Origin: a virus
Strand: one strand, 5' to 3'
Virus record (IMG/VR): IMGVR_UViG_3300007539_000009
Location: 1-64,000 of that record
Length of the DNA: 64,000 nt
Part shown: positions 10,019 through 64,000 of the stretch, in pieces
Layout: every line of letters starts with the position of its first letter
How positions within the stretch are numbered: the stretch's first letter is position 1
Program-made: the position numbers and the translations under genes
Notes under the pieces: generated by a model
Told to the model about the DNA's origin: nothing
Databases searched by the model: none
What the model saw: only the letters and a program-made list of their open reading frames with translations

Positions 10019-10029
10019 TCATGCAATAT

Positions 10030-10072
10030 GGCCCCTCGTCCCTGGCATAGGGCGGGGGGCCGCTCTTCTTTT
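10030..10072 (+). terminator. Intrinsic terminator
   Basis: ggcccctcgtccct / agggcggggggcc stem followed by tcttctttt. Confidence 0.55.
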
Positions 10073-10089
10073 AGCAGCACAATGTGTGC

Positions 10090-11118
10090 ATGCAGCAGAA
10101 CACCAGACTTGTCACGGGTGCGCTCGTGGCGGCAGTCACAGTCGCAGCGGTTTTAGGGCCGCAGCGCACACCTCAAGGGTCGGTTCAGATCTCCAAGCCC
10201 ATCGTACAAGCGCAGATGTTGCCAGGAGGCGTGACCACCGGAGTCTACGCTCCTGACGGCGTCGGCAACGGATACCAGGACTACAAGCTGTGGCTTCCTG
10301 ACCATGGACAGCCTGCGCCGCTCCTGATGTTCAACCTCGGCGGCGGCTGGACTGAGCCATCACCTCTGCCGGAGAACTTGCCGGCATCGTTCGAGCCGTG
10401 GGTTGAAGCTGGCTTCGCCTTCGCGCTCTGCCGGTACACATGGACGGACGACCAGTTCTTACTGAACGGCGAGTTCCCTGCGGCTGAACAAGATGCGCAG
10501 CGCGCCATCCAACACTTCCGACACAACGCTTCGCGGTTACGCCTCAACCCTGACGCCATCTGCGCGATGGGCCGATCGGCTGGAGCGCACAACATGCTGT
10601 GGGCAATGCTGCGGCAAGACGCAGCAGATAGCCGCCTGGAAGGCCAGGGGTCAGCGAGCTCCAAGCCGGATGTAGTACTGCTCCGTGCGCTCGCGCTAGT
10701 GCACCTGCCGGCGAGCCTGCAACATCAGTTCTCGACAGGCGTCAAGCACTACGTCCCCACCGGCAAGCTGAAGGACCTCGGCATCGGAGCGCAGCTCAAC
10801 GCGTCAGCTACCACGTGGCTTGACGAAGCAGCTCCCGGAACAATCGAGGACATCCCTGTGTGCCTGACGTCTGGTTCTCAGAAATTGATCTATGGCACGG
10901 ACTTCCCGTACCCCTCGAACGCTATCGGGTTCAACCACGACCCGTGGAACGGAGCGGTGCTTTGGGCGCGGCTGCAGGAACGTGGGGGCGTCCACCTGAC
11001 GCATAGCCGTTACGTGTCCCTCTATGACACTCCGCTCACTGAGCAAGAACTCACCAAGCAGCAGATCCGCTGGACCAGAGCGATGCTTGACCACTTAGGG
11101 CAACCGCTTCCGAACTGA
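10090..11118 (+). CDS. Secreted alpha/beta-hydrolase (BD-FAE-like carboxylesterase)
   Basis: Signal-like N-terminus, KLWLP..PLLMFNLGGGW, DAQRAIQHFRHNA, nucleophile elbow GRSAG, C-terminal His (FNHDP). Confidence 0.8.
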   Translation: MQQNTRLVTGALVAAVTVAAVLGPQRTPQGSVQISKPIVQAQMLPGGVTTGVYAPDGVGNGYQDYKLWLPDHGQPAPLLMFNLGGGWTEPSPLPENLPASFEPWVEAGFAFALCRYTWTDDQFLLNGEFPAAEQDAQRAIQHFRHNASRLRLNPDAICAMGRSAGAHNMLWAMLRQDAADSRLEGQGSASSKPDVVLLRALALVHLPASLQHQFSTGVKHYVPTGKLKDLGIGAQLNASATTWLDEAAPGTIEDIPVCLTSGSQKLIYGTDFPYPSNAIGFNHDPWNGAVLWARLQERGGVHLTHSRYVSLYDTPLTEQELTKQQIRWTRAMLDHLGQPLPN

Positions 11119-11693
11119 TGGGCGTACAAGACGACAATCTAAGGATCGTCACCCTCGACGGCGATGCGTTCATTCGCACCTCGTTCGAAAATGGCGTTCA
11201 CTACCCTCACCACTACGTACGGCTCTTCGCATCGGACGGGGCAGAGTACAGCCCGGATCGTCCGCTGCCTGTGGCGCTGTACAGCGTCGGTGGGGTGGAG
11301 GTTGTCGTCGAGTCCGGCAACATCAACATCAACCTAGACCACGAGAACGACAGCGTGGTTGCGTACGGCACGCAAGCAGGCGGATCTCCGACTGCGTTGC
11401 GTGTCGATGCAGATGGTCACCTTCAAGTAGACATCGTTTCAGGAGACTGGCAGCAGTATGAAGTAGACACAGTACCCGACGCGCAGTACAGCGGCACGAT
11501 TGCCGTGGGTCTGCAAACAGGATCACCAGGGCCTGTAGTGGGCAACGGCACGTACGCACCACTGCAGTTCTCAGACAACGGAGCGCTGCTCGTTAGCCTC
11601 GGCACTGCGGGCGCTTCCGGCTCATTCACGACAGCCGATTCTCCCCCTAGAACGGTAACCGTGACAAACGGCTACATCACCTCTATTACATGA
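11118..11693 (+). CDS. Short fibre-like protein, paralog of the N-terminus of the 11945..14746 fibre
   Basis: DNL..DA.IRTS..G.H.P.H..RL..G.EY..RP.PVALY is shared with the long fibre; ends TVTVTNGYITSIT. Confidence 0.65.
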   Translation: MGVQDDNLRIVTLDGDAFIRTSFENGVHYPHHYVRLFASDGAEYSPDRPLPVALYSVGGVEVVVESGNININLDHENDSVVAYGTQAGGSPTALRVDADGHLQVDIVSGDWQQYEVDTVPDAQYSGTIAVGLQTGSPGPVVGNGTYAPLQFSDNGALLVSLGTAGASGSFTTADSPPRTVTVTNGYITSIT

Positions 11694-11915: not shown

Positions 11916-11946
11916 AGGCCGGTCGACCACCCGGCCTCTCTTCTTT
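11916..11946. terminator. Hairpin at convergent gene junction
   Basis: aggccgg/ccggcct stem followed by ctcttcttt. Confidence 0.45.
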
Positions 11947-14746
11947 ACAGCACAGTCCGGAACCAAGCAGTGACTACGTTTGGTGTGCCAGTACCCGAAG
12001 AGGTGTTTGTGGTGAATCCGACCACATCCCCGGCTGCAAACTGAACTGGCGACGACAGCTCGGTGTACGTGTTGTTAGGCGTAGCAGCACCGCCTGATAT
12101 CATCGAGTATGCGTTCGTTCCGTTTTTCTCGATATCGACAGTTGCTGTACCAGACGCAAGACTGAGTGCCGCTGCAAATAGCTCACACTTAGGTACAAGC
12201 ACCCCTTGGCCTGATGGCATGTTGGCGCCGTTACCGAACGCCCATTCGGTCGCACCCCCAGTACCTAGCGCTGCGTTCTCCTCGGCCCAGATAGCGAAGA
12301 CACCTACAGCGCCCAGCCGATTATCGATACCAGACAAATGTGACGACAGGTGGTCGACATTGTTGTGAGTAGGCGACTCAGTACTGGGGGAGTAATGCGT
12401 AGGGGTGAAATCTATGCCTAGCTTGTCAGCATCGATTGCGTCACTGCCGCCCAAGATGTGTGTCTCAATCACTGACCCGTGAGCAGTCGTTGCGTACAGC
12501 GTATCCAGGCTAAAGTTTGTCCACGTAGCTCCGCTGTATAGCAGCACATGAGCGACGGCAGGTGTGGTGAGGGTCACATCGCTCAGGTCATTGATGCTTA
12601 GTGAGATGCCACCGACTTCTGCGTCAACGTAACCCTTGTTGGCTGCAGAGCCTGCAACCGTAGGACTTGGTACGGCTACTTCACCGCTAAACGCACGTGT
12701 GCCGTCAACCAGCGAGTATTGGGTATGGTCATCATCCGCCAACCCACCGAGTGCGCCGTGATCAGTGATGACGTTAGCGGTGAGTTGGCCGTCGACGTAG
12801 CCCTTATTAGCAGCAGACCCAGCGGCCGTAGGGCTGGGTACCACAACTTCGCCCGTGAAATCGCGCGATCCGTCTGCCAACGAGTATTGCGTGTGGTCAT
12901 CATCACCCAAGCCTCCTAGAGCACCGTGATCGGTGATGACGGGAGGTAGGGCGCTTATCTGTGCGTCGACGTATCCTTTGTTACTAGCGTCAGCGCTTGT
13001 GGTCGGGGAAGACAGGCTGGTGAGCTTGTTGGACCCCATCGACTGATCGCCTGTAAACGCACGGGTGCCGTCAGCTCGTGTGTATTGGGTGTGATCGTCA
13101 TCAGTTAAGCCAGACAGGCCACCATGCTCTGTGATGACGGTGATCCCGGCTACTTGCGTATCGACGTAGCCCTTGTTAGCCGCTGACCCGCCGGCCGTGG
13201 GACTGGGAACTACGACCTCCCCACTGAAGGCCCGAGTTCCGTCGGCCAGTGAGTACTGGGTGTGATCGTCATCGCCAAGACCACCTAGTGCTCCGTGATC
13301 GGTGACGATATTGGTGGCGATCTCAGTGTCAACGTAGCCCTTGTTTGCTGCCGACCCACTGGCAGTAGGACTAGGGACAACGACTTCACCGCTGAAGTCT
13401 CTCGAGCCATCCGCCAGTGAGTATTGCGTATGATCGTCGTCACCGAGACCCGACAGCCCACCGTGGTCTGTGATCACAGTGATGCCGCCTACCTGATCGT
13501 CGACGTAGCCTTTGTTTGCTACTGAGTCTCCTGCCGTAGGGCTGGGCGCAGTGACCTGACCGCTGAAGCCTCGAGTGCCGTCAACAAGGACGTACTGCGT
13601 GTGGTCATCATCAACAAGTCCAGTCAGTGCTCCGTGGTCCGTGACCAGCGTGGGCTTGTTGAGAATCTCTGCGTCGCCACCGACTGCGTTCCAATCCGCG
13701 TTGACATTGACCTCTGCACCGGCAGCGATGCCCGACAGCTTTGTCTGTTCGGCGTCAGTGAACGCATTGGTATCTGCTTCACCTTCGTAGGCAGCCTTGA
13801 TCTCCGCGCCTGTTTGATCAGCGGTGGCCCCGGACTCGATACCGTCGAGCTTCGCACCATCTGCTGATACGTCGCGACCGTCGACGTTACCAACGTTGGT
13901 GATGGCGTTGGCCCCCATGTTGAGGCCGCCTGACATGCTGCGAGTACCATTGGTGAGCAGGTATTGCGTGTGGTCATCATCACCCAGGCCAGTAAGAGCC
14001 CCGTGGTCACTCGTGCCACCACCTGTGCCCAGAGGCACCGCCCACACCAAGTCGCCTCGCAGGAACTTGGCAGGGCTGCTGGCGTCCGGAGACAGCCACT
14101 TCAGACCGCCCGTGACGCTCGAGTCCGCTACGAGAATCGAGTTGTCGGATCCGACCTCCAAAACGAAGTCCGTAGATCCGTCATAAGTAAGTAGATCACC
14201 CTTTTGCGTGAACGGGATCATCGCCACGCTGTTGGCGAAGCTGACATAGACGCGACCTTCGTCGTCCATGATCAATGGTGCCAGCCTGCCGTTGCCGGTG
14301 GTCTGGCTGGCCGGGGTAGCCCCTACCTGCACACCCAGCACCACCTGCCCTGCGTTGCTAGCGGGCGACGCGTAGGCCGACCCGATGCGCGGGTGGCTGG
14401 CCAAGGTGATCGCGTCAACCTCGAGCTCGCGCGCATAGTTGACGCGAAGCTGCTGCGCCTCGTCCCCGGGACCCACCCCGTAGATCGAGATCGAGTCACT
14501 TGACGCGTCCGTGTCGACATCGATAGCGTCAGCCACGAGCACGATGGGCGATCCGGAGGTCGCGTAGAGCGCAACAGGGACAGGGCGGTTCGCCCCATAC
14601 TCGTTACCGCTTCCGTCGAGCAGTCGAGACTTGTGATACGGCGTGTGAATGCCGCCGGACTCAGAAGTCCGAATCACTGCGTCGTCTAGGAAGCCGTCTT
14701 TTACAGAGAGATTGTCTGACATGGTTACAGCCGTGGCCACGCCCAT
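11945..14746 (-). CDS. Long tail-fibre / receptor-binding protein (start may be ATG 14722)
   Basis: Mosaic of fibre motifs: KGDLLTYDG..VGSDNSILVADS..GLKW, GAKLDGIESGATADQ, DHGALxGLxDDDHTQY repeats, ANKGYVD, LSDV..VLLY.G.TW.N. Confidence 0.85.
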   Translation of the reverse strand: MGVATAVTMSDNLSVKDGFLDDAVIRTSESGGIHTPYHKSRLLDGSGNEYGANRPVPVALYATSGSPIVLVADAIDVDTDASSDSISIYGVGPGDEAQQLRVNYARELEVDAITLASHPRIGSAYASPASNAGQVVLGVQVGATPASQTTGNGRLAPLIMDDEGRVYVSFANSVAMIPFTQKGDLLTYDGSTDFVLEVGSDNSILVADSSVTGGLKWLSPDASSPAKFLRGDLVWAVPLGTGGGTSDHGALTGLGDDDHTQYLLTNGTRSMSGGLNMGANAITNVGNVDGRDVSADGAKLDGIESGATADQTGAEIKAAYEGEADTNAFTDAEQTKLSGIAAGAEVNVNADWNAVGGDAEILNKPTLVTDHGALTGLVDDDHTQYVLVDGTRGFSGQVTAPSPTAGDSVANKGYVDDQVGGITVITDHGGLSGLGDDDHTQYSLADGSRDFSGEVVVPSPTASGSAANKGYVDTEIATNIVTDHGALGGLGDDDHTQYSLADGTRAFSGEVVVPSPTAGGSAANKGYVDTQVAGITVITEHGGLSGLTDDDHTQYTRADGTRAFTGDQSMGSNKLTSLSSPTTSADASNKGYVDAQISALPPVITDHGALGGLGDDDHTQYSLADGSRDFTGEVVVPSPTAAGSAANKGYVDGQLTANVITDHGALGGLADDDHTQYSLVDGTRAFSGEVAVPSPTVAGSAANKGYVDAEVGGISLSINDLSDVTLTTPAVAHVLLYSGATWTNFSLDTLYATTAHGSVIETHILGGSDAIDADKLGIDFTPTHYSPSTESPTHNNVDHLSSHLSGIDNRLGAVGVFAIWAEENAALGTGGATEWAFGNGANMPSGQGVLVPKCELFAAALSLASGTATVDIEKNGTNAYSMISGGAATPNNTYTELSSPVQFAAGDVVGFTTNTSSGTGTPNVVTAWFRTVL
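12610..14010 (-). repeat. Seven DHGxLxGLxDDDHTQY modules, six of them in near-tandem 56-66 aa units
   Basis: Counted in the translation; DNA copies are diverged. Confidence 0.9.
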
Positions 14747-31537: not shown

Positions 31538-31556
31538 TCGGGCTTCTGTTGCTGTT

Positions 31557-31592
31557 GAGGGGGCCCCGGCTTCGGCCGGGGTCTCCTCTTTT
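31557..31592 (+). terminator. Intrinsic terminator with UUCG loop
   Basis: gagggggccccggc ttcg gccggggtctcctc followed by tttt. Confidence 0.8.
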
Positions 31593-31598
31593 ACAACC

Positions 31599-33067: not shown

Positions 33068-33489
33068 CTGATACAGACTTCACTACCGGCGACGTCGACA
33101 AGCTCAAGGCAGCTATCGACTCCGCAAACAAGCTCGAGAACCTCGGCGACCTCGCAGGGCAGAGCGCCTTCGAGATCGATTGGGAAGAGCTCAACCTCAA
33201 TAGGGGCCGGTACGTGATGACTGGTCGCTCGGCGGTAGTCCCTACGTACGGCGGTCTGACTAAGATCGTGTTTCATATCACTCGGGGCTCGATCAACGAC
33301 CTTGAGAAGATTGCAGAGGCCCTGGCGTTAGCAACCCAGGGCCTTGACATTACCGGCACGTTTGCGGAAGCCGGGCAATCACCAGTGATACGAGGTCAGT
33401 GGGACTTCGTTCTCTTCCAGGTTCCTGCCGTGAACGCTCACAACGTTCACTCTTACTTGCGAGACGCTGCACTGCGTGCCCTGACGTGA
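33064..33489 (+). CDS. Hypothetical protein
   Basis: ATGA overlap, MTDTDF...; 141 aa. Confidence 0.65.
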   Translation: MTDTDFTTGDVDKLKAAIDSANKLENLGDLAGQSAFEIDWEELNLNRGRYVMTGRSAVVPTYGGLTKIVFHITRGSINDLEKIAEALALATQGLDITGTFAEAGQSPVIRGQWDFVLFQVPAVNAHNVHSYLRDAALRALT

Positions 33490-34337
33490 ACGAATACCAC
33501 GAACGCTATCTACAAGGTCTAACCGCTAAGTATCCCGTACTTGATCGTGAATACGAGCGGCAGCTGCTGCTTCGTGTCGATCTGCACGGAGACCCTGTGG
33601 CTCGAGAGCTGCTGTTCAAGCACAACGTGCGGCTCATCATCAACTGCGTTCAGAAGTTCTGCCACGTCAACGACCCACGCTTCCAGGACTTGTTCCAAGC
33701 TGGGTCAATGAGCATCTTCACCGCCATCGACCGCTTCGATACGTCACGAATGCGAGACGACGGCAAGCCGATCAAGTTCTCCACCTTCGCCGTGTGGTGG
33801 ATCATGGCTGGTGTTCGATCGGAGCTACAGAAGCTGCAGATCAAGACGCCGCCTAGTTTCCAGAAGCTGCGTGCCGACTTCCAGAAAGCAGCGAGAGAGC
33901 TTCGCAAAGAGCTCAAGTACACACCGAACGAAGACGAGGTGTTCGCCCGGCTGGAGTGGAGTGAGATCGACAGGGCACTGTACGAGATCAGCTGTGATCG
34001 ACAGATCGTTTCCCTATCCAACATCACCGCATCTGGTAGCTCTGACTCTGTAGGATCAGACGACCTAGTAGATGGCAAAGACACTGAATCGCTAGCTATC
34101 GAAGCGCTTCAGCAAGAGGACCTCGCGGCTGCAATAGCGCAAGCACTTGAAGGTCTCGAACCGATAGAGGCTGATATCGTTCGCCGGCACAACGGCCTTG
34201 GCGGTGAGGAGCCGCAGAGCTGCGAGCAGATATCACACGTGTACCTGATGACGCGTGAGCAAGTCCGTGACATACACGCAGGCGCCCTTGCGCAGCTTTG
34301 GGTGCTCCTAGAAGAGCTCAAAACGCAGGTCGAATAG
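33486..34337 (+). CDS. Sigma70-family RNA polymerase sigma factor
   Basis: Region 1.2 PVLDREYE, region 2 HNVRLI..DLFQAG..AIDRFD..KFSTFAVWWI, region 4 IVRRHNGL..EQIS..TREQVRDI..AL. Confidence 0.88.
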   Translation: MNEYHERYLQGLTAKYPVLDREYERQLLLRVDLHGDPVARELLFKHNVRLIINCVQKFCHVNDPRFQDLFQAGSMSIFTAIDRFDTSRMRDDGKPIKFSTFAVWWIMAGVRSELQKLQIKTPPSFQKLRADFQKAARELRKELKYTPNEDEVFARLEWSEIDRALYEISCDRQIVSLSNITASGSSDSVGSDDLVDGKDTESLAIEALQQEDLAAAIAQALEGLEPIEADIVRRHNGLGGEEPQSCEQISHVYLMTREQVRDIHAGALAQLWVLLEELKTQVE

Positions 34338-46752: not shown

Positions 46753-46759
46753 GGGCTCT

Positions 46760-46807
46760 AAACGAACGTGGGCGCGGCACCACCGTTAGGTAGCAGCCAC
46801 GCCCACG
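46760..46807 (-). terminator. Possible partial terminator or processing hairpin
   Basis: Minus strand cgtgggcgtggc/gccgcgcccacg followed by ttcgttt. Confidence 0.4.
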
Positions 46808-46825
46808 ACTTTGCAGCAGCAGCGA

Positions 46826-48949: not shown

Positions 48950-48967
48950 TGTTCTGTGTAGTGGGGT

Positions 48968-49014
48968 AAAGGAAAGGGGCCCCGCAGACGGGGAACGTCC
49001 GTCTACGAGGCCCC
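48968..49014 (-). terminator. Terminator downstream of major capsid gene
   Basis: Minus strand ggggcctcgtagacgg..ccgtctgcggggcccc followed by tttccttt. Confidence 0.7.
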
Positions 49015-49040
49015 GTAGGTCACATCAGATCCGGATCAGA

Positions 49041-50321
49041 TCACTCGTTGAACGGGTTGCCCGGATCGTTGTAGAAGGTGAAGGTACCGGTCGTGTTGAG
49101 CGCGGTGCCTGCACTGTTCTGGAACAGGTTCGGCATGTCGATCGAAGCGCCCGACAGCAGGATGCTACCGATGCCCTTGATGTTGCCGAAGCCCATGCCG
49201 ACTTCTTCCCACGCCTCGAACTCGATGAAGCGACCGCGCTTGTCGATGAAGAAGCGCGTGCCCTCGAGCAGGAGGAAGCGACCGAGGAACTCGGGAGCCG
49301 GGAACGAGAACATCTGACCGGGCTGGACGATGTTCGGGTTGTCGCGGACCGTGGTGACGAAGGTGTACCCACCGACAGTGGTGTACTTGTAACCGTCACG
49401 CGTGATCTCGCTGGTGATCTCGAGGCCAGCCTCGGTATCAGACCATGCGATCGTGTCAGTCCAGTCGACCTCGTGCAGGAGGAAGACACGGCCCTTCATC
49501 TCGCGAGCGGGCTGGACCTTCATGAGGTCACGCAGCACGTTGCGGTCGAACTCCGTAGCCGTGGAGGTCAGGAAGTTCGAGAAGACCGCGTTCGCCGGGT
49601 TGTAGTTCGGGTGCGTGGCGTCGAAGTCCGCATCCCAACCGTGCGTGGCCGGAGCGCCGGCACTCGGGCTCAGGGCACCACCGTCACCGACAGCACCGGA
49701 GGTACCGGCGTTAGCGACGTTACGGGTGTAGATGTAGGAGGCGAAGGAGTACTTCGAGTTGAAGTTCTTGCCAGTCGCCTGGGCCATATCGTCACCCTCG
49801 TGGGTGACGGTCCCGCGATCGACCAGGGTGTTCATGCGACGGCGGGTCGCGAGGAACACAGCAGTCCGGACGTGATCCATGAAGATCTTGTCCTCTTGCT
49901 CCTGGATGTCCTTGACGGTGTTCTGCTCGAGAACCTTCGTCAGGGGCATGCGGTAGGAGCGAAGTTCGGACTCGCTCTTCTGGAACTTGTCGGAGCTGAT
50001 CGTGGTGAAGCGGATCTCGTACCGCTTCGCCTCGATGTAGGTCTTCGACGGCTCGCCACGCATGTTGATCTGCATGGCCAGCGAATCGGGCTCGATGTCG
50101 TCGATGTACGACAGGCCCTCATCGGTCGTGTTGCGGGTGAGCTCTGCGGTGGTGACTACCTGCGGGGGAAGCACACGACGAGCGAAGCTGTTTTCACGGA
50201 GCTTGTCCTGGATGTAGGAGCCCGTGACCTCAGCGGTCTTCTCGAGTGCGTCTCCGCCACGGTTGATCGCCTCACCGAAGAGAGAGTTGAACTCATCCGC
50301 GTTAAGCTGGAAATCGCTCAT
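49041..50321 (-). CDS. Major capsid protein
   Basis: 426 aa, extreme codon bias, strong terminator; KLRENSFARRVLPP..KDIQEQED; follows protease, scaffold and decoration genes. Confidence 0.8.
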   Translation of the reverse strand: MSDFQLNADEFNSLFGEAINRGGDALEKTAEVTGSYIQDKLRENSFARRVLPPQVVTTAELTRNTTDEGLSYIDDIEPDSLAMQINMRGEPSKTYIEAKRYEIRFTTISSDKFQKSESELRSYRMPLTKVLEQNTVKDIQEQEDKIFMDHVRTAVFLATRRRMNTLVDRGTVTHEGDDMAQATGKNFNSKYSFASYIYTRNVANAGTSGAVGDGGALSPSAGAPATHGWDADFDATHPNYNPANAVFSNFLTSTATEFDRNVLRDLMKVQPAREMKGRVFLLHEVDWTDTIAWSDTEAGLEITSEITRDGYKYTTVGGYTFVTTVRDNPNIVQPGQMFSFPAPEFLGRFLLLEGTRFFIDKRGRFIEFEAWEEVGMGFGNIKGIGSILLSGASIDMPNLFQNSAGTALNTTGTFTFYNDPGNPFNE

Positions 50322-52454: not shown

Positions 52455-53828
52455 TCAGATTGCGGTTGCCAGGAATGGCATCCAGTTGGGAACCGAGCTC
52501 GATGCTCGGGGTACAGTGAAAGCTGCGTCTACGCCGTTTCGCTGCAACGCGAAGCGGATGATCGGGTCTCTCTCCTGTAGCGCAGCAAACTTCTCCAAGT
52601 CTATCTGACGCAGCAGGTTACGGTACCGATCGTGCCCGTAGGCAGACGCAGTTTTTACTAGGGCGAAATGAGAGAGCTGGCTCGCGGTGCGCCTGGTGAA
52701 GTACGGATCGAACATCGACCGCTTCTCCAGATGCGGCTCCAAAGCCATTACCAGTGTGCGGTTAGGAGAAGCCAGCGGCAACGGATCTGAGATTTGAGTC
52801 TCTCCAGCCACTTTCTCGTACTCGTCATTCGTCAGATAGATCCCTAACGACACGCAAGCGCGCAGGGCTTCCTGTGCTCCAGCGTTGGCCAGTTTCTCGA
52901 GTACACCGGCCGGGAGCGGCTTAATGTATGTGAGGTCCTGGTGGGCTGACTTTTTCACGAAGTCGACCAGGCGGGGGTCGGTATCCGACTTCTTGGCAGG
53001 AACTGACTTAGCCACAGGCTCCATCGGCATGTCCTTCCGTATCTCGGACTTCTTGGACAGCGAAGCGCTGGCTACTTTGCGGATCGACCACGCGCTGCGA
53101 TCGGCCGGTGTGAGCACCCGGGAGATATCGAAGAAGCGCGGGAAATCGTTGTACGCGTAAACACGGCGACCATCAGGGAGCATCCTCCCCAGCCAGTTTT
53201 TTAGGTGGTCGCAGTAGTCGGCGCGCTGCTTAGCCGGGTTGCCGCAGATGCTGCAACGGTCGTAAGGCAGCTTAGCGCCCATTGACCACGGGACCGGTGT
53301 ACCGTCGTCAATCATCTTGACGACGTCAGGCGCGTGCTTTGTGCGGACGAACACAATCAGCTCGACCCGCTTCATCTTGTCGTTGTATGCGCTGGCGATC
53401 ACATCGCCGATCGACTTCGCAGGGTCTTTGTTCTCGTGGAACTTGTAGACGTGCGCGTAACGCGGGAACGTGTGCTCGCCGTACGCTTCTTTGGGCGGGA
53501 TGACGATGTTCGGGTACTTCTTCCGAACGCGATCATTGATGTAGCGTGCGATGTCGCTAGGCGGATCCATAGCCTTGAGGCTCCACTCCGGGAATGCGTC
53601 CCCGTTGCGGTTATGGCCCCAAGTCTCGCACGCACCTAACGCGTTCAACAGGACGTAGCGCCCGTCTTGGCGCGGCTTCAGCTGCTCAGCTACACGCAGT
53701 AGCGACTCAGGTGTTGAGTCAGCAGATGCGATCTTGTCGAACGTCGAGCCGTGCACAAGGCTGTAGTCAGGGCCCCAATCGTGGTAGCCGCCTACATCGA
53801 ACGTCTTGCCTGAGGTTGCGAAGCTCAC
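52455..53828 (-). CDS. Prohead maturation protease (HK97/assemblin-like fold) with zinc-finger insert
   Basis: FHENKD..IGDV (His), WSMG (Ser), CSICGN..CDH, FFDISRVLTPAD (EvSxVxxPA-like). Confidence 0.7.
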   Translation of the reverse strand: MSFATSGKTFDVGGYHDWGPDYSLVHGSTFDKIASADSTPESLLRVAEQLKPRQDGRYVLLNALGACETWGHNRNGDAFPEWSLKAMDPPSDIARYINDRVRKKYPNIVIPPKEAYGEHTFPRYAHVYKFHENKDPAKSIGDVIASAYNDKMKRVELIVFVRTKHAPDVVKMIDDGTPVPWSMGAKLPYDRCSICGNPAKQRADYCDHLKNWLGRMLPDGRRVYAYNDFPRFFDISRVLTPADRSAWSIRKVASASLSKKSEIRKDMPMEPVAKSVPAKKSDTDPRLVDFVKKSAHQDLTYIKPLPAGVLEKLANAGAQEALRACVSLGIYLTNDEYEKVAGETQISDPLPLASPNRTLVMALEPHLEKRSMFDPYFTRRTASQLSHFALVKTASAYGHDRYRNLLRQIDLEKFAALQERDPIIRFALQRNGVDAAFTVPRASSSVPNWMPFLATAI

Positions 53829-56094: not shown

Positions 56095-57873
56095 TTAGGG
56101 CAGGTTGGGCAGCAGGGTGGTTGTGAGCTCGCCGTAGTACTGCATACAAGCCGCCTCAGCGTACGCCAGGCTGTGGAATGCGTCGTCCGGGACCTCGTGG
56201 TCGTATTTGTAGGTGTTCCGCCGCTCGTCGAACTCGATGTAGATACCGGTGAAATCAGACACAAACGGCTTCAGGTCCATGAAGTTGAAGAAGCGCGTCT
56301 TGCCAGTTCTGATCTTGTCGACAATCAGCTCGATCATCTGGTTGCGGTCGATCGAGTAGCGCTCAGCGTCAGGGCGCCACTTAGCCAGGAGGCCCTGCTG
56401 GACGTACTGCATCTGCATCAGCAGCCGCTCAGCGCCGTACCAGTTCCACCCCAACTCGTCGACCAGTCGGGCGTTCTGAGCCGCACCAAAGCCCCAGTCA
56501 GCTCCGCACCAGCGCACGTTGCACTGGGTCATGATCTCGTTGAGCGCTCCTACCTGCTTAGAGAGGTTCACTTCTGTACCAGTGAACTTCTTCATGTAGA
56601 GAACGTGGAACACGCCTTGTTTGTCACGGTGACCAATTGTGATCACGGTGTACGACGGGTTGTCTCCCTCTCCTGAGCCGTAGTCAATGCCGGCAAATAC
56701 CGGGACGCCGCGATTGGCTATTTCGCGGATAGCACGAAACTGGCTCATCTCCCGCTCTTCGCACGCATTCCGCATGACGCTTTCGGTCAGCACTAGCTGA
56801 CCCTCGTCATACGGCAAGCCCAGCACCTCATTGAAGTACCGACGCGCGCTGTACTCTTCGCGCTTGGCCTTGACCTTGGCGTGGCTTTGGAACGGTACGA
56901 TCAGCTGCGGGATGCGGAAGCCCCAGCGATGGTCTAAGTAGCTCGGCTGGCTGGGAACCCACTTGCCGTTTCGCGGTTCGATCTCTTTTCGACAGCGCGT
57001 GCAGCGGTAAGCATCGTCCGCAACGATCTCGTCATCTGGATAGTTCCAGTGATTACATGCGCTGCACTTGATCAGCCACTCGAACTGGCTGGTTCTAGTC
57101 CAAGTTCGGCTGATTAGGTTGGATGTTGTCTTCGGTGTTCCAGCGTACAGCCGGAACTTGCGATGGTCCTTGGCGTGGGATTGGCACTCCTCGAGAACCT
57201 CAATCGCGTCGGAGACAATGTCCTGAATCTCGTCTACCAACAGGTGCTCGCAGGTGATGCCTCGAGCGTTGTCAGCGGACAGGTAGCACGACCGGAAGTT
57301 GAAAAACGCACCGTTGGTGAACTCACGGGACGAGACTTGCCACAGCGTCTTGCTGGGCTGCACCCACAGGCCCATGTCCGGTGAGTCCTCACACATTGCG
57401 CGGAATCGCTGCGTAGAGAACACGGACACCTGATCCCATCGAGGCGCGATGTATAGCGTTTTGTACGCTTTGTACATCGCAGCCAACGAGATGGACTTCG
57501 CTGCCTGGGACGTGGACTTCTCAACCTGTCGTCCAGCCAGCATCAGCACGTTACGACACCCCATTGGGTACTGCTTGCGCAGGTCATAGACGCCGTACAG
57601 GTACTCTCTGCCTGTGAAGTCAAACGGCTCGCGGTCGACAGTCAAGAAGTTCTTGACGAAGCCAGAGACAGTAGAAACCGCCTTAGGTCCGCCCAGGTCT
57701 TTCTTGACTCGGTGAGCCGCGACGTGCTGGCTCTCCTGAGCAATCTGCTCTGCCTGCTGGTTGTACTTCGACCAATCGATCGCCTCGAGGTCGTTGTTGG
57801 CCAGCGTGACCGCCACGTCACGCAGCAGCTGTGCATGTGTAGTGGGCGGAGCAGTTCCTAGAAGTTCAGCCAA
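56095..57873 (-). CDS. terL: Terminase large subunit
   Basis: Walker A GRQVEKST, Walker B LLVDEIQD, YAGTPK, C..C zinc sites, nuclease AGIDYG and DDAFHS. Confidence 0.88.
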   Translation of the reverse strand: MAELLGTAPPTTHAQLLRDVAVTLANNDLEAIDWSKYNQQAEQIAQESQHVAAHRVKKDLGGPKAVSTVSGFVKNFLTVDREPFDFTGREYLYGVYDLRKQYPMGCRNVLMLAGRQVEKSTSQAAKSISLAAMYKAYKTLYIAPRWDQVSVFSTQRFRAMCEDSPDMGLWVQPSKTLWQVSSREFTNGAFFNFRSCYLSADNARGITCEHLLVDEIQDIVSDAIEVLEECQSHAKDHRKFRLYAGTPKTTSNLISRTWTRTSQFEWLIKCSACNHWNYPDDEIVADDAYRCTRCRKEIEPRNGKWVPSQPSYLDHRWGFRIPQLIVPFQSHAKVKAKREEYSARRYFNEVLGLPYDEGQLVLTESVMRNACEEREMSQFRAIREIANRGVPVFAGIDYGSGEGDNPSYTVITIGHRDKQGVFHVLYMKKFTGTEVNLSKQVGALNEIMTQCNVRWCGADWGFGAAQNARLVDELGWNWYGAERLLMQMQYVQQGLLAKWRPDAERYSIDRNQMIELIVDKIRTGKTRFFNFMDLKPFVSDFTGIYIEFDERRNTYKYDHEVPDDAFHSLAYAEAACMQYYGELTTTLLPNLP

Positions 57874-60998: not shown

Positions 60999-62435
60999 TC
61001 AGGTCATCGGGACACTTGTGGGACCGCTCGGACCTTCGGGCGTCGGGTGAATGTGTGCGTTGTAGCTGGTGCGGATCTCGACCAGGTCCCCCAAGGCGTC
61101 CGCCACCAAGCCGGCAGCTGTGACATTTCCTTGGGCGGTCACATTCCCTTGAATGTTCATGTTGCCCTGCAGCTCGACGTCGCCAGTCACGTCTACTCCA
61201 TTCTGGGAAACTACAACTGTCCTGTTGACAGTGACTTCCAGCCCTTCGTCAGTCAACCGGAAGAACTGAGACCCGCGCTCTACCCGTGTGCCTTGGGAGT
61301 CAATGACCAGCTGATGCGGGGTGCCTGACCCCGTCTCCTGGATCTTGAGCTCGCCGGAGTCCGAGTTGAACGTGATGTCGAACTTGTCACCAACCTTGAA
61401 GTGGACGCCGGCTGAAACAGGCCCGCCAACAGCATCCTGCACCCCTCCAGGGGTGTTGGGGTTCGAAAAGTCCGTGCTGGGGTGCGGCGCATTCTCTGCG
61501 GCCAACTCCCCCATTTCCAGGCTCAGCAGCTGCTCTCCAGCCTGCTGCTGCATCCGGTAGGTGTTGGTCTCGTTGTCGATCTCCTCGACGCGATGGCCAC
61601 CCCACAGCCGGCGGCGCCCTCGAGCAACGATCGGGAGGCTGCCCAGCCCCGCTACATCATCGACAATCACCAGAGGCACGAATCCGGTGAACTCCCGCAG
61701 GTCTACGTCTTGCGCAAGACTCTGAGCCCGAAGCAGGTTCAAGTGCGTCACCCGCCCCTGTGTCGCCCCGGAGGCAGTGACCGTGGTGTGGGTGTCCGTC
61801 CACCCTGCAGACTCAAACGACCAGTCCCGACACGACGCTTGGATGCGGTTTCCCTGGGAGTGCATCAGGAAGTAGGTGCGGCGGGACTTCGGTTGGAGCA
61901 AGATGTCTCCGAAGTCGTAGACCCGCACTAACGCACGCTCCTGGTTGAGCCGCGCACGGTTCTGCATGATCGCGTCACCGGGGAAGATCGCCGACTCAGC
62001 GATGCCGCGCTGGTCTATTCGTCGGAAGCTGATCTGCTGACCTGTGCGGTTGAGGAGGTCACCTTCGAGGTTGGTTGCAGAGTCAGCAAGCTGCTCTTCG
62101 ATGGTGTTGGCCTCTGTGCCTGTATTGGCAGAGATGACATCAAGCTCACCGATCACTACCCAATCAGCACCTACGAAGTGAGCAGTGATTACGCGCGTAC
62201 CTTGCGAGTACGGCCGTTCTGCGCCTTGCCGCATAGCGGAGCAGAGACGATCCCCGATACGGTCGATCGTGACGTTGTAAACCCGTGTCTTCGGGTTGTA
62301 GCCACGAATCACACCAGCAAACATCTGGTGCGACCGGTTCACCCCTCGCGTTTGGTAGGCGTACAGCTGCTGACCCGCTGTGCTCAACACAGCAGGCTTA
62401 TTGCCTCCAAGTCCTGAAGGGTAGCCCGCGTCCAT
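60999..62435 (-). CDS. Baseplate central spike (gp5/gpV-like)
   Basis: N-terminal OB-like domain, VTGDVELQGNMNIQGNVTAQG beta-helix repeats, C-terminal NAHIHP (HxH metal site). Confidence 0.75.
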   Translation of the reverse strand: MDAGYPSGLGGNKPAVLSTAGQQLYAYQTRGVNRSHQMFAGVIRGYNPKTRVYNVTIDRIGDRLCSAMRQGAERPYSQGTRVITAHFVGADWVVIGELDVISANTGTEANTIEEQLADSATNLEGDLLNRTGQQISFRRIDQRGIAESAIFPGDAIMQNRARLNQERALVRVYDFGDILLQPKSRRTYFLMHSQGNRIQASCRDWSFESAGWTDTHTTVTASGATQGRVTHLNLLRAQSLAQDVDLREFTGFVPLVIVDDVAGLGSLPIVARGRRRLWGGHRVEEIDNETNTYRMQQQAGEQLLSLEMGELAAENAPHPSTDFSNPNTPGGVQDAVGGPVSAGVHFKVGDKFDITFNSDSGELKIQETGSGTPHQLVIDSQGTRVERGSQFFRLTDEGLEVTVNRTVVVSQNGVDVTGDVELQGNMNIQGNVTAQGNVTAAGLVADALGDLVEIRTSYNAHIHPTPEGPSGPTSVPMT

Positions 62436-62887
62436 CAGATCTGCTTGACGCTCTCCTTCAGCGACTCAATGATCTTCTCGCGAATCTCAGGACGCCGCGT
62501 CTCGATGATGCGAATCAGGCGCTGCACCCAGTCTTTGAGTGAGATCCTCAAGCCCTTTTGTTGAGGCAGGGCAATCGTCTTCTGCGCAAAGCGGCGAACG
62601 ATTTCGCGCTCCTCACCAGTGGCCGGAGCACCTTTGTAGTCGCGGCGGAACTGCTGTGCTTCCAAGTCTTGCCGACGGCCTGCGCGGTCGATCTCAGTCG
62701 TTGTGTACTGATGCTCAGCAATCTTGGCGAGCTCAGACACGTAGCTCTCCATAGCTCCTCGTTTCACAAATCCTCCTGGTATAGTTCGGCTCCCGGGCAG
62801 CACCGCACGATTGAATCCAGTTCCGGCCGTCAACTTGACGTTTGCCAGCTTTTCAAGTTGAGCCAAGAGTGCTTCGTATGCGTTCAT
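62435..62887 (-). CDS. Small protein with two ELxKxA motifs
   Basis: AQLEKLANV, YVSELAKIAEH. Confidence 0.7.
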   Translation of the reverse strand: MNAYEALLAQLEKLANVKLTAGTGFNRAVLPGSRTIPGGFVKRGAMESYVSELAKIAEHQYTTTEIDRAGRRQDLEAQQFRRDYKGAPATGEEREIVRRFAQKTIALPQQKGLRISLKDWVQRLIRIIETRRPEIREKIIESLKESVKQI

Positions 62888-63999
62888 ATCTTGACAGGGC
62901 GCTTGACAGAGTCGATGGAGCGCAGATTAGTCAGCGCCAGTTGAGAGATGGGATGACCTTTTTGCAGATCAGTCTTCAACCCCATGGTGGGGGCTCGCTC
63001 GAGCGTCTTCTGGAGCTTTTCGTGGATTAGCGATCCGACAAAGTCGGTGCTGTAGCTAGGCGCGGCCTTGATGCCTGCGACCAGCGGCTCGTATTCGATC
63101 TCTTTGCCCCGCATCTTGCGAATCTTGGCGTTGTACTCTTCGATCTGATTAGTAAGCACAAAGTCGCCGGACACGACACCGAACTTGGACCCATCGTTGG
63201 CTTCAGTGACCTTCGCCCGGTTGGTCAAAGGCGTGATCGCAGTCTCATAGATCTTGCGGCGAATCTTACTGCCTGACGCGCTGTAGTTCTTATCCAGCTC
63301 ATCAATCAGGTAGTTCTGCACGCGCGGCAGATCTCCTGTGAGGTCCAGCAGCTCTTTCGGCTCGACGATGCCGTGGCGGCTGAGTTGATCGCCTGCTTTG
63401 ACCCGCTGGCCTCGCGTCACCTTGGTTGCGAGCTCTTGCGGGATGAAATGTCTAGTGCCCGACACGAAGACATAGTCGCCCCCGGTAGGACCGGGCTCGA
63501 TCTTGTTAACTACACCGTCGTTCTGAGCCAGAACTGCTTTACCTCTAATGGTTTGCGGCATTTCCAGGATCTGCTTGATCCGGTCAAAGCCAAGGTTCGA
63601 CTCTGAGCCAACCGCACCACCTGTGTGGAACGCGCGCAACGTCACCTGCGTAGCACGCTCGCCAATAGTCTGCCCAGCAAGCGCACCAATGTGGAAACCA
63701 ATGCGAGGTGACTTACCACTCTCGTCGAGGCCAAAGCATTTCTGGCAGATGCCGCCAACTGCCTTACACGTCATAGGCGAACGCACCTTGATGCGCTTCT
63801 CGCCCTTCTGCCGCAAGCGGCGTGCAAGCTCTTGCGTGATGATTTGATTGCGGTACGCACCCTCAGCACCGTAGCGGTCGGAGATCTCCTTGTCGTCAAG
63901 AGACATCTCGATACCCTGCATCGTTCCGCAGTCATCCGCTTTGATGGTCATCTCGACGTTCGAGTTGACCAGCAGGCGGCTTAAGTAGCCTGTATCAGC
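62884..63999 (-). CDS. rpoC: DNA-directed RNA polymerase beta-prime subunit, C-terminal part (open at window end)
   Basis: Bridge-helix end ADTGYLSRLL..DDCGT, VRSPMTC..ICQKCFG zinc site, trigger loop GALAGQTIGERATQVTLRAFHTGG, GFDRIKQILE. Confidence 0.92.
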   Translation of the reverse strand, partial: ADTGYLSRLLVNSNVEMTIKADDCGTMQGIEMSLDDKEISDRYGAEGAYRNQIITQELARRLRQKGEKRIKVRSPMTCKAVGGICQKCFGLDESGKSPRIGFHIGALAGQTIGERATQVTLRAFHTGGAVGSESNLGFDRIKQILEMPQTIRGKAVLAQNDGVVNKIEPGPTGGDYVFVSGTRHFIPQELATKVTRGQRVKAGDQLSRHGIVEPKELLDLTGDLPRVQNYLIDELDKNYSASGSKIRRKIYETAITPLTNRAKVTEANDGSKFGVVSGDFVLTNQIEEYNAKIRKMRGKEIEYEPLVAGIKAAPSYSTDFVGSLIHEKLQKTLERAPTMGLKTDLQKGHPISQLALTNLRSIDSVKRPVKI

Positions 64000-64000
64000 A

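Follow-up and report, generated by a model that had tools for sequence, protein, structure and literature searches.

A single-chain, intein-containing beta-beta-prime RNA polymerase gene in the head gene string of an uncultured phage

The first 64,000 bases (positions 1-64000, hereafter the window) of the IMG/VR virus record IMGVR_UViG_3300007539_000009, a record of 183,184 bp rated 95% complete by CheckV, end inside the gene of an RNA polymerase (RNAP). In the 183-kb genome of this uncultured phage, the gene is an open reading frame (ORF) of 2,388 amino acids on the minus strand (contig 62884-70050; L001:885-8051:-). Analysis of its translation indicates that the product is a cellular-type two-barrel RNAP of the bacterial beta/beta-prime lineage, with both subunits fused in one chain. 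The window contains only the 3' end of the gene (62884-64000, minus strand), corresponding to its last 371 codons; the frame is open at the window edge (62884-63999+) and extends 6 kb past it. An earlier note, made from the letters of the window, had described an RNAP beta-prime gene at 60999-64000. A polymerase is indeed encoded at 62884-64000, but it is the end of a fused chain that carries an intein; the region holds three minus-strand ORFs, two other genes occupy 60999-62883, and the window includes just one half of the bridge helix. We consider it on balance probable that the protein is the only RNAP of the phage, working as a spliced single chain that is guided by a phage sigma factor, insensitive to rifampicin, packaged in the virion and delivered from it.

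Domain architecture and phylogenetic position of the fused chain

Pfam searches with the 2,388-residue translation revealed six domains, Rpb2 domains 3 and 6 followed by Rpb1 domains 1, 2, 3 and 5, including PF00562 (Rpb2 domain 6, the beta double-psi barrel region; E=4.6e-58) and PF04565 (fork/Rif region; 8e-12). The portion encoded in the window (translation of 62884-63999) matched RNA_pol_Rpb1_5 (E=5e-22) and also phrog_25354 (E=2e-38), to which PHROGs assigns no function. Beta ends with GINLEQ (residues 1347-1352) and beta-prime starts with IKATPMTD (1357-1364), leaving a linker of about 4 residues; this junction lies outside the window, at about 65959-66012 on the minus strand. Scores against NCBIfam models were 514 for NF007172 (cut-off 5,372), 489 for rpoC (cut-off 963) and 328 for rpoB (cut-off 801).

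Both halves of the chain are slimmed. The beta part, about 1,004 amino acids long, lacks the regions matching SI1 and SI2 of Salmonella RpoB, which are proteobacterial insertions of beta, and the beta-prime part, about 1,032 amino acids long, is missing three elements of Salmonella RpoC, namely the N-terminal zinc ribbon, SI3 and the C-terminal tail. The segment corresponding to E. coli residues 64-95, which holds the four cysteines of the zinc ribbon (C70, C72, C85 and C88), is deleted in the query as well as in L034, L046 and L018, the three further clade members of the alignment. The alignment with RpoC showed that the clamp helices, catalytic loop, bridge helix, trigger loop and Zn2 are retained. 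The Mg-binding motif NADFDGD reads NMDFDGD here (residues 1737-1743; contig 64822-64842, minus strand, about 820 nucleotides past the window edge), with the three aspartates kept. The catalytic half and a complete beta, which the earlier note had proposed to look for upstream, are both present just past the window edge.

Within the window, the C-terminal half of the bridge helix (ADTGYLSR) lies at 63976-63999, the second zinc site of beta-prime at 63736-63936 and the trigger loop (GERATQVTL..RAFHTGG..GFDRIKQILE) at 63562-63663, all on the minus strand. The zinc site consists of DDCGT (63922-63936) and CKAVGGICQKC (63736-63768), and its four cysteines, C814, C888, C895 and C898 in E. coli, are all retained. 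The trigger loop is of Thermus/Gram-positive length. Alignment with the Salmonella and Staphylococcus RpoC proteins revealed that SI3 (E. coli residues 943-1131, 189 residues) is absent, as in Gram-positive enzymes. This confirms that the bridge helix, the zinc site and the trigger loop are kept, with no large insertion in the last, as had been noticed from the window. A weak Peptidase_M23 match at residues 2169-2227 probably corresponds to the sandwich-barrel hybrid domain of beta-prime, as judged from known fold relationships.

The Rif region aligned without gaps, and the contacts of the pocket carry the substitutions Q513R, H526V, R529L and S531T (E. coli numbering). Because the rifampicin pocket is substituted, the enzyme should be insensitive to rifampicin, a prediction that draws on established knowledge of resistance mutations.

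We found relatives with full-length RNAP at 49 loci of IMG/VR, in two forms. The fully fused form occurs at 28 loci and measures about 2,020-2,730 amino acids (an in-frame stop interrupts two of these, and the contig end truncates one). The 21 other loci are not fully fused; where complete, they encode beta and the N-terminal half of beta-prime in one protein, and the C-terminal half of beta-prime 2-5 kb downstream. This split layout is also that of two groups of cultured phages, Salmonella phage Arash (gp206 and gp216) and the Vibrio phages D69, D148 and D181. In a collection of 5.8 billion proteins, at least 120 clusters of fused proteins were recovered (about 1,400-3,760 amino acids, mostly about 2,000-2,900), the best of them matching the query with 61% identity. 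All these clusters are metagenomic, and all but one of those that bear a name are called 'beta-prime' only.

Trees were computed from beta plus beta-prime (54 rows, 1,262 columns) with FastTree and with IQ-TREE under LG+G4; being unrooted and built without an archaeal or eukaryotic outgroup, they are silent on the age of the clade and on its donor. All fused forms grouped in one phage-only clade with a support of 100 in the Shimodaira-Hasegawa-like approximate likelihood ratio test (SH-aLRT), separate from Bacteria (100) and from four loci taken to be mReC (100). The latter were L060 and L062-L064, which had been grouped with L061 by architecture (low identity and separate beta and beta-prime ORFs). 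The phylogeny proposed as a check by the earlier note thus places the protein in a phage-only clade that is not nested inside Bacteria. With beta joined to beta-prime, a portal gene upstream on the same strand and this position in the tree, the protein is, on the strength of its sequence, a member of the Arash-type fused phage RNAP clade.

Kinship with the mReC lineage, evoked by the earlier note, did not hold. The mReC contig L061 (3300005915_Ga0075122_10000014) encodes separate subunits, and its match to the query, with 26% identity, covers beta only; mReC membership is ruled out by the fused gene, by a terminase of family PF05876, by PF07068 not being detected and by the separate clade. The scan of bacterial genomes returned only ordinary rpoBC genes, the best of 25-29% identity; these were mostly from Bacteroidota because of the search patterns, and gave no clue to the host.

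These results also bear on whether the stretch might be a piece of host rpoC, captured recently or in decay, without function of its own. A general resemblance to bacterial beta-prime, and nothing further, speaks for this. The 2,388-codon frame is however intact and contains all the catalytic motifs, its codon bias is like that of the neighbouring phage genes, and no bacterial rpoBC that was found exceeds 29% identity to it. Furthermore, the phage-only clade comprises at least 120 sequence clusters, and the identical sequence occurs in contigs of three other samples. The tree and the intact frame rule out such a fragment for practical purposes, and we regard it as scarcely credible. A search of the 183-kb genome detected no second RNAP, so that a single copy is present.

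Some other loci show different layouts. One in-frame stop at L025:12161-12163, present at the same position in L044, splits the fused RNAP into 747 and 1,276 amino acids; a genuine split, recoding of the stop and a misassembly are all conceivable. In Vibrio phage D181 (L003, OZ196140; 11932-19914), the RNAP is encoded in three pieces, all annotated 'hypothetical protein' and separated by several tiny ORFs and a gene annotated as a homing endonuclease, a layout that suggests introns or free-standing endonucleases. D69 has no such endonuclease. Among other cultured phages, Cobetia phage Carin-5 (L173) carries bacterial-type RNAP genes in its replication module, in the order sigma, beta-prime, beta, and Rhizobium phage RHph_Y65 (L172) a lone annotated beta-prime, also in the replication module; both layouts differ from that of the portal-linked fused clade.

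An intein in the catalytic loop of beta

The most conserved loop of beta contains a LAGLIDADG intein of 348 amino acids (residues 799-1146; 66613-67656, minus strand, outside the window), which runs from CFDD to HWSGN between the extein sequences GSKGIVT and CILPD. Orthologues of 2,021-2,105 amino acids lack exactly this segment, which appears in the alignment as a clean gap of 348 residues. When six inteins of the RNAP family were aligned, the first cysteine (C1), the TxxH histidine of block B, both LAGLIDADG motifs and the terminal asparagine were invariant; the +1 residue of the query intein is a cysteine. A profile of the intein family matched PI-PkoII (E=1.8e-15), V-ATPase inteins (1e-12) and I-DmoI. 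The family profile was needed, as phmmer with the single intein gave no match in the PDB. The homologous intein of L011 was recognized by Pfam as LAGLIDADG_3 (3e-13). A LAGLIDADG homing-endonuclease intein is thus established at the level of sequence, and its splicing is predicted. The GC content at third codon positions falls from 0.71-0.73 in the exteins to 0.56 in the intein, as would fit an intein that invaded the gene later. In the closest relatives, L011 and L012, the homologous intein sits 11 residues upstream.

The same intein-containing allele was found, identical, in contigs of three other samples, namely two aquatic metagenomes of 2017 with different study codes and an oyster metagenome of 2025. 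No intein-free allele was seen in the contigs examined, although contigs are no proof that none exists. One extein-intein junction is spanned by a contig of a metatranscriptomic library; this is a weak hint of transcription, since carry-over of DNA into the library is possible. Aquatic and freshwater metagenomes from 2017 and a 2025 metagenome from oyster contain sequences nearly identical to window positions 62884-64000, and partial sharing of sequence words with this segment was observed in estuary runs of 2024-2025. The phage population appears to be widespread and stable.

Inteins of the RNAP family occupy at least seven insertion sites, at query residues of about 393, 637, 787, 798, 1310, 1745 and 2139, the last falling inside the trigger loop. 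Further intein-bearing RNAP ORFs were seen in L011, L014, L015, L016, L027 and L039, with two inteins in one protein, and a related intein is present in the large terminase (L017:22055-25054 and L030:22028-25621). As far as the sequences go, the fused phage RNAP family is an intein hot spot.

Sigma factor, head gene string and packaging

A sigma-70-family factor, identified with Pfam and NCBIfam models (regions 2 and 4, with a weak region 3), is encoded in the window at 33399-34337 on the plus strand. In a six-frame search of the genome, PF04542 scored 31 bits (cut-off 24) and PF04545 25.2 bits (cut-off 24.1), while hmmscan of the ORF itself gave 22.5 for region 4, slightly below the cut-off. 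The protein passes the superfamily model TIGR02937 only and lies far under the RpoD and RpoS cut-offs. It is likely to be the specificity subunit of the phage RNAP, and a sigma factor was equally clear at the Pfam level in both related fully fused genomes that were tested. A complex prediction for the beta-prime clamp region and the phage sigma factor scored 0.00, which speaks neither for nor against their partnership. Neither alpha (PF01000) nor omega (PF01192) gave a match in the 95%-complete genome, a result that leaves room for the use of host alpha; PF01000 likewise matched nothing in five large records of relatives, of which three are rated complete. The earlier note had foreseen a complete new transcription system. 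The sigma factor is indeed there, but the system is not wholly new, since beta, beta-prime and two sigma factors (gp10 and gp196) of Arash have been published (PMC10585845).

The RNAP gene lies in a minus-strand string that runs from 81023 to 56095 (25 kb) without any intergenic gap above 35 nucleotides. In the direction of transcription, the string encodes proteins of 315, 1,788, 210, 339 and 198 amino acids, a 653-residue portal (70471-72432, minus strand; E=1e-66 against Arash gp204 over the whole length), a 143-residue ORF (70043-70474, minus strand) that overlaps the start of the RNAP gene by 8 nucleotides, and the RNAP. After it come proteins of 150, 478, 119, 560 and 358 amino acids and, as the last gene, the large terminase subunit (56095-57873, minus strand; PF05876 3e-11, phrog_675 8e-66). 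The earlier placement of a cellular-type two-barrel RNAP inside a virion operon was therefore correct, the gene being part of a head and packaging string.

This linkage is conserved. A portal homologue lies on the same strand, at most 10 kb upstream of the RNAP gene, in 34 of the 46 loci with enough upstream sequence, and a terminase or head protease is found downstream in related loci. The order portal, small ORF, RNAP with the 8-nucleotide overlap is the same in Arash and D181, and this placement inside the head module is kept across the clade, down to about 27% identity. In mass spectrometry of Arash particles, the beta-type protein gp206 yielded the most spectra (3,516), with 1,210 for gp216 and 467 for the sigma factor gp10 (PMC10585845). 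From the portal linkage and the Arash proteomics together, packaging of the RNAP in the present phage is plausible and appears to be the most likely reading.

We propose the following course. The primary product would be a 2,388-residue chain made of the slimmed beta, the linker of about 4 residues and the slimmed beta-prime, from which the intein must splice out before the active enzyme, about 2,040 amino acids long, can form. This single chain would build the whole catalytic core without alpha or omega, and would use the phage sigma-70-family factor to locate phage promoters. With its gene translationally coupled into the 25-kb gap-free string with the portal and the large terminase, the RNAP would be synthesized late, at the time of the head proteins, then enter the capsid and leave it along with the DNA; in the next cell, the delivered enzyme would start transcription independently of the host polymerase. 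Late synthesis, packaging and delivery seem most likely because the position after the portal is conserved across the clade to 27% identity.

Several observations weigh against this proposal. The penultimate residue of the intein is a glycine, where a histidine is usual. In the three split-form metagenomic genomes tested, matches to sigma Pfam models were only weak, and k-mer enrichment over 58 upstream regions did not extract a promoter motif. The RNAP itself has no putative capsid-targeting tag of the DELxKxA type (only 11 of its 176 lysines stand in a K-x-A context). Finally, the Arash preparation comprised 116 proteins, including ribonucleotide reductases and ligases, and its authors consider carry-over of abundant proteins (PMC10585845).

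The last two points would also be expected if the RNAP were not packaged at all. The host polymerase would then read the early genes, including that of the sigma factor, the phage RNAP with its sigma factor would take over middle or late transcription, and the place of the gene in the head module would be historical. The location of the sigma gene in an opposite-strand, probably early block agrees with this, as does the presence of one RNAP set only, while phiKZ-type phages use separate virion and non-virion enzymes. However, an enzyme synthesized alongside the portal and the terminase would come too late to help much in that cycle, the RNAP keeps its place after portal and small ORF, with overlapping codons, down to about 27% identity, and it topped the spectra in the Arash particles. 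We hold an unpackaged enzyme to be doubtful rather than probable. Alternatively, the RNAP could play a dual role, packaged copies starting the infection and newly made copies carrying on transcription with at least one phage sigma factor, so that a second polymerase set would be unneeded. The single RNAP gene is compatible with such a scheme, and so are the two sigma genes of Arash (gp10 and gp196) and the weak matches in related genomes, which are maybe a second divergent sigma factor. Only one clear sigma factor was however found in the query genome, and we consider the dual role rather unlikely.

Packaging and delivery of the spliced chain can also be put in a stricter form, in which the spliced chain of about 2,040 amino acids and one sigma factor would constitute a minimal self-sufficient machine, without alpha, omega or zinc ribbon, loaded into the capsid by way of head assembly, ejected, insensitive to rifampicin and dependent on obligatory intein splicing. 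This is possible, and we put it forward tentatively; if true, no smaller sigma-dependent cellular-type RNAP would be known, and no other of this type would have been shown in a virion before.

The two genes that share 60999-64000 with the RNAP are both on the minus strand. The RNAP gene and the next one overlap by a stop/start ATGA (62884-62887), as the earlier note had seen, and this next gene (62435-62887) encodes a basic protein of 150 amino acids with two ELxKxA-like motifs, LLAQLEKLAN and YVSELAKIAE. It matched no family and gave no tblastn match in the closest relatives L011 and L012, in which a spike-like ORF begins directly after the RNAP. The 478-residue protein that follows (60999-62435) does adjoin as predicted, and may be the central tail spike. 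The leads are beta strands predicted for the N-terminal part, GNxxxxG repeats in the C-terminal part, an HIH motif close to the C-terminal end and neighbours in the Atlas at 0.90-0.92 (Phage_base_V, Phage_spike and Apex clusters). Its baseplate identity did not gain a significant match, the best one in the PDB being the Mu gp45 spike (E=0.22), and an AlphaFold2 model was unusable (mean predicted local distance difference test score 33.8).

Downstream of the string, a prohead-protease-like head protein (52455-53828, minus strand) is shared with Arash (region of gp222) and with Vibrio phage D181, and a candidate major capsid protein (49041-50321, minus strand) has a weak match to phrog_2522 and a homologue in D181. 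Searches of PHROGs and Pfam returned nothing for the 150-, 478-, 119-, 560- and 358-residue proteins downstream of the RNAP, nor for the 143-, 198-, 339-, 210-, 1,788- and 315-residue proteins upstream of it, and phmmer with the 560-residue protein gave no match in the PDB.

GC-rich hairpins followed by a C/T-rich run that ends in TTT(T)A(C/G) are present in most intergenic gaps, on both strands (window 46753-46825, 48950-49040, 10019-10083 and 31538-31598; contig 81024-81086 and 98648-98697); from their sequence, they look like intrinsic terminators. Other parts of the genome contain a giant ORF of 3,636 amino acids without Pfam match (contig 115093-126003, minus strand; L005:1094-12004) and further ones of 1,788, 1,538, 1,411 and 1,200 amino acids without significant matches. 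A pair of paralogous genes of about 300 amino acids with 45% identity lies at contig 83830-84753 and 103042-103941 (both minus strand). A 191-residue protein (11118-11693, plus strand) shares 35% identity with the N-terminus of the 933-residue protein encoded next to it (11945-14746, minus strand).

Comparison with known RNA polymerases

The closest described enzymes are those of Arash (OQ632216, PMC10585845) and of Vibrio phages D69, D148 and D181, which belong to the same phage-specific clade. They share with the query the fusion of beta to beta-prime and a genome of about 180 kb, carry a sigma factor of their own, and have homologues of its portal and head protease. They differ from it by an identity of 27-32% and by a beta-prime that is cut after its N-terminal half, whereas the query is one chain with an intein. 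Arash gp206 is labelled 'beta' in GenBank and the Vibrio phage genes 'hypothetical', and the Arash paper does not mention a fusion (PMC10585845). In the literature, we found no description of a fused or single-chain phage RNAP with a sigma factor, nor of inteins in phage RNAP genes, and the jumbo-phage reviews of 2020 and 2026 do not mention a fused RNAP architecture. A phage bacterial-type RNAP with a sigma factor in a virion preparation is thus already published; we found no publication on the full fusion, the load of inteins or the conserved linkage to the portal.

This family bears on what alpha and omega contribute to assembly, and on how an enzyme of 2,000 residues can be packaged and ejected. 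A compact, sigma-programmable and probably rifampicin-insensitive polymerase is also a possible tool for orthogonal expression. The family comprises at least 120 sequence clusters, and cultured members in Salmonella and Vibrio hosts make experiments feasible.

Fusions of RpoB and RpoC are known from Helicobacter and Wolbachia (NF007172, NF011417) and have the same order, beta then beta-prime, with a very short linker. They are however cellular, correspond to NCBIfam models of about 2,890 positions and function with alpha2 and omega. The query reaches only 514 bits where NF007172 requires 5,372, and the phage fusion therefore arose independently. As for the intein, the eukaryotic and viral RPB2/RPA2 inteins (PMC1635734) are likewise LAGLIDADG inteins in the most conserved catalytic segment of a large RNAP subunit, with several non-allelic sites per gene family. 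The present case differs in that the host gene is a tailed-phage RNAP and that at least seven sites are used in one family. Archaeal RpoA genes also carry inteins.

The mReC phages (Weinheimer and Aylward 2020, PMC7481178) resemble the present one as tailed phages with a deep-branching, alignable bacterial-like beta and beta-prime. Their subunits are separate proteins in the consulted entries of the supplementary table (PMC7481178), and their T4-type capsid protein (PF07068) and terminase (PF03237) contrast with the PF05876 terminase found here.

The other known phage kin of cellular RNAP are either divided into several pieces or hardly recognizable. Like the query, the enzymes of the jumbo phages phiKZ and AR9 derive from beta and beta-prime and lack alpha and omega, and one set of them is packaged and injected (PMC7598289). 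They consist however of 4-5 polypeptides that are hard to align, with two sets per genome and no sigma-70-family factor, whereas the query is one chain, in one set, with a recognizable sigma factor. Gp66 of the crAss-like phage phi14:2 and the tape-measure-fused RNAP of Thermus phage P23-45 are, like the query, long single two-barrel chains, and are delivered from the virion (PMC10770324); they retain little beyond a DFDxD-type catalytic core and have no recognizable beta/beta-prime domains, while the query has six Pfam domains. The Arash-type clade stands apart from both groups in that its bacterial architecture aligns readily and a true sigma factor is kept, without alpha, omega or the zinc ribbon of beta-prime, and in the query all of this architecture is contained in one polypeptide.

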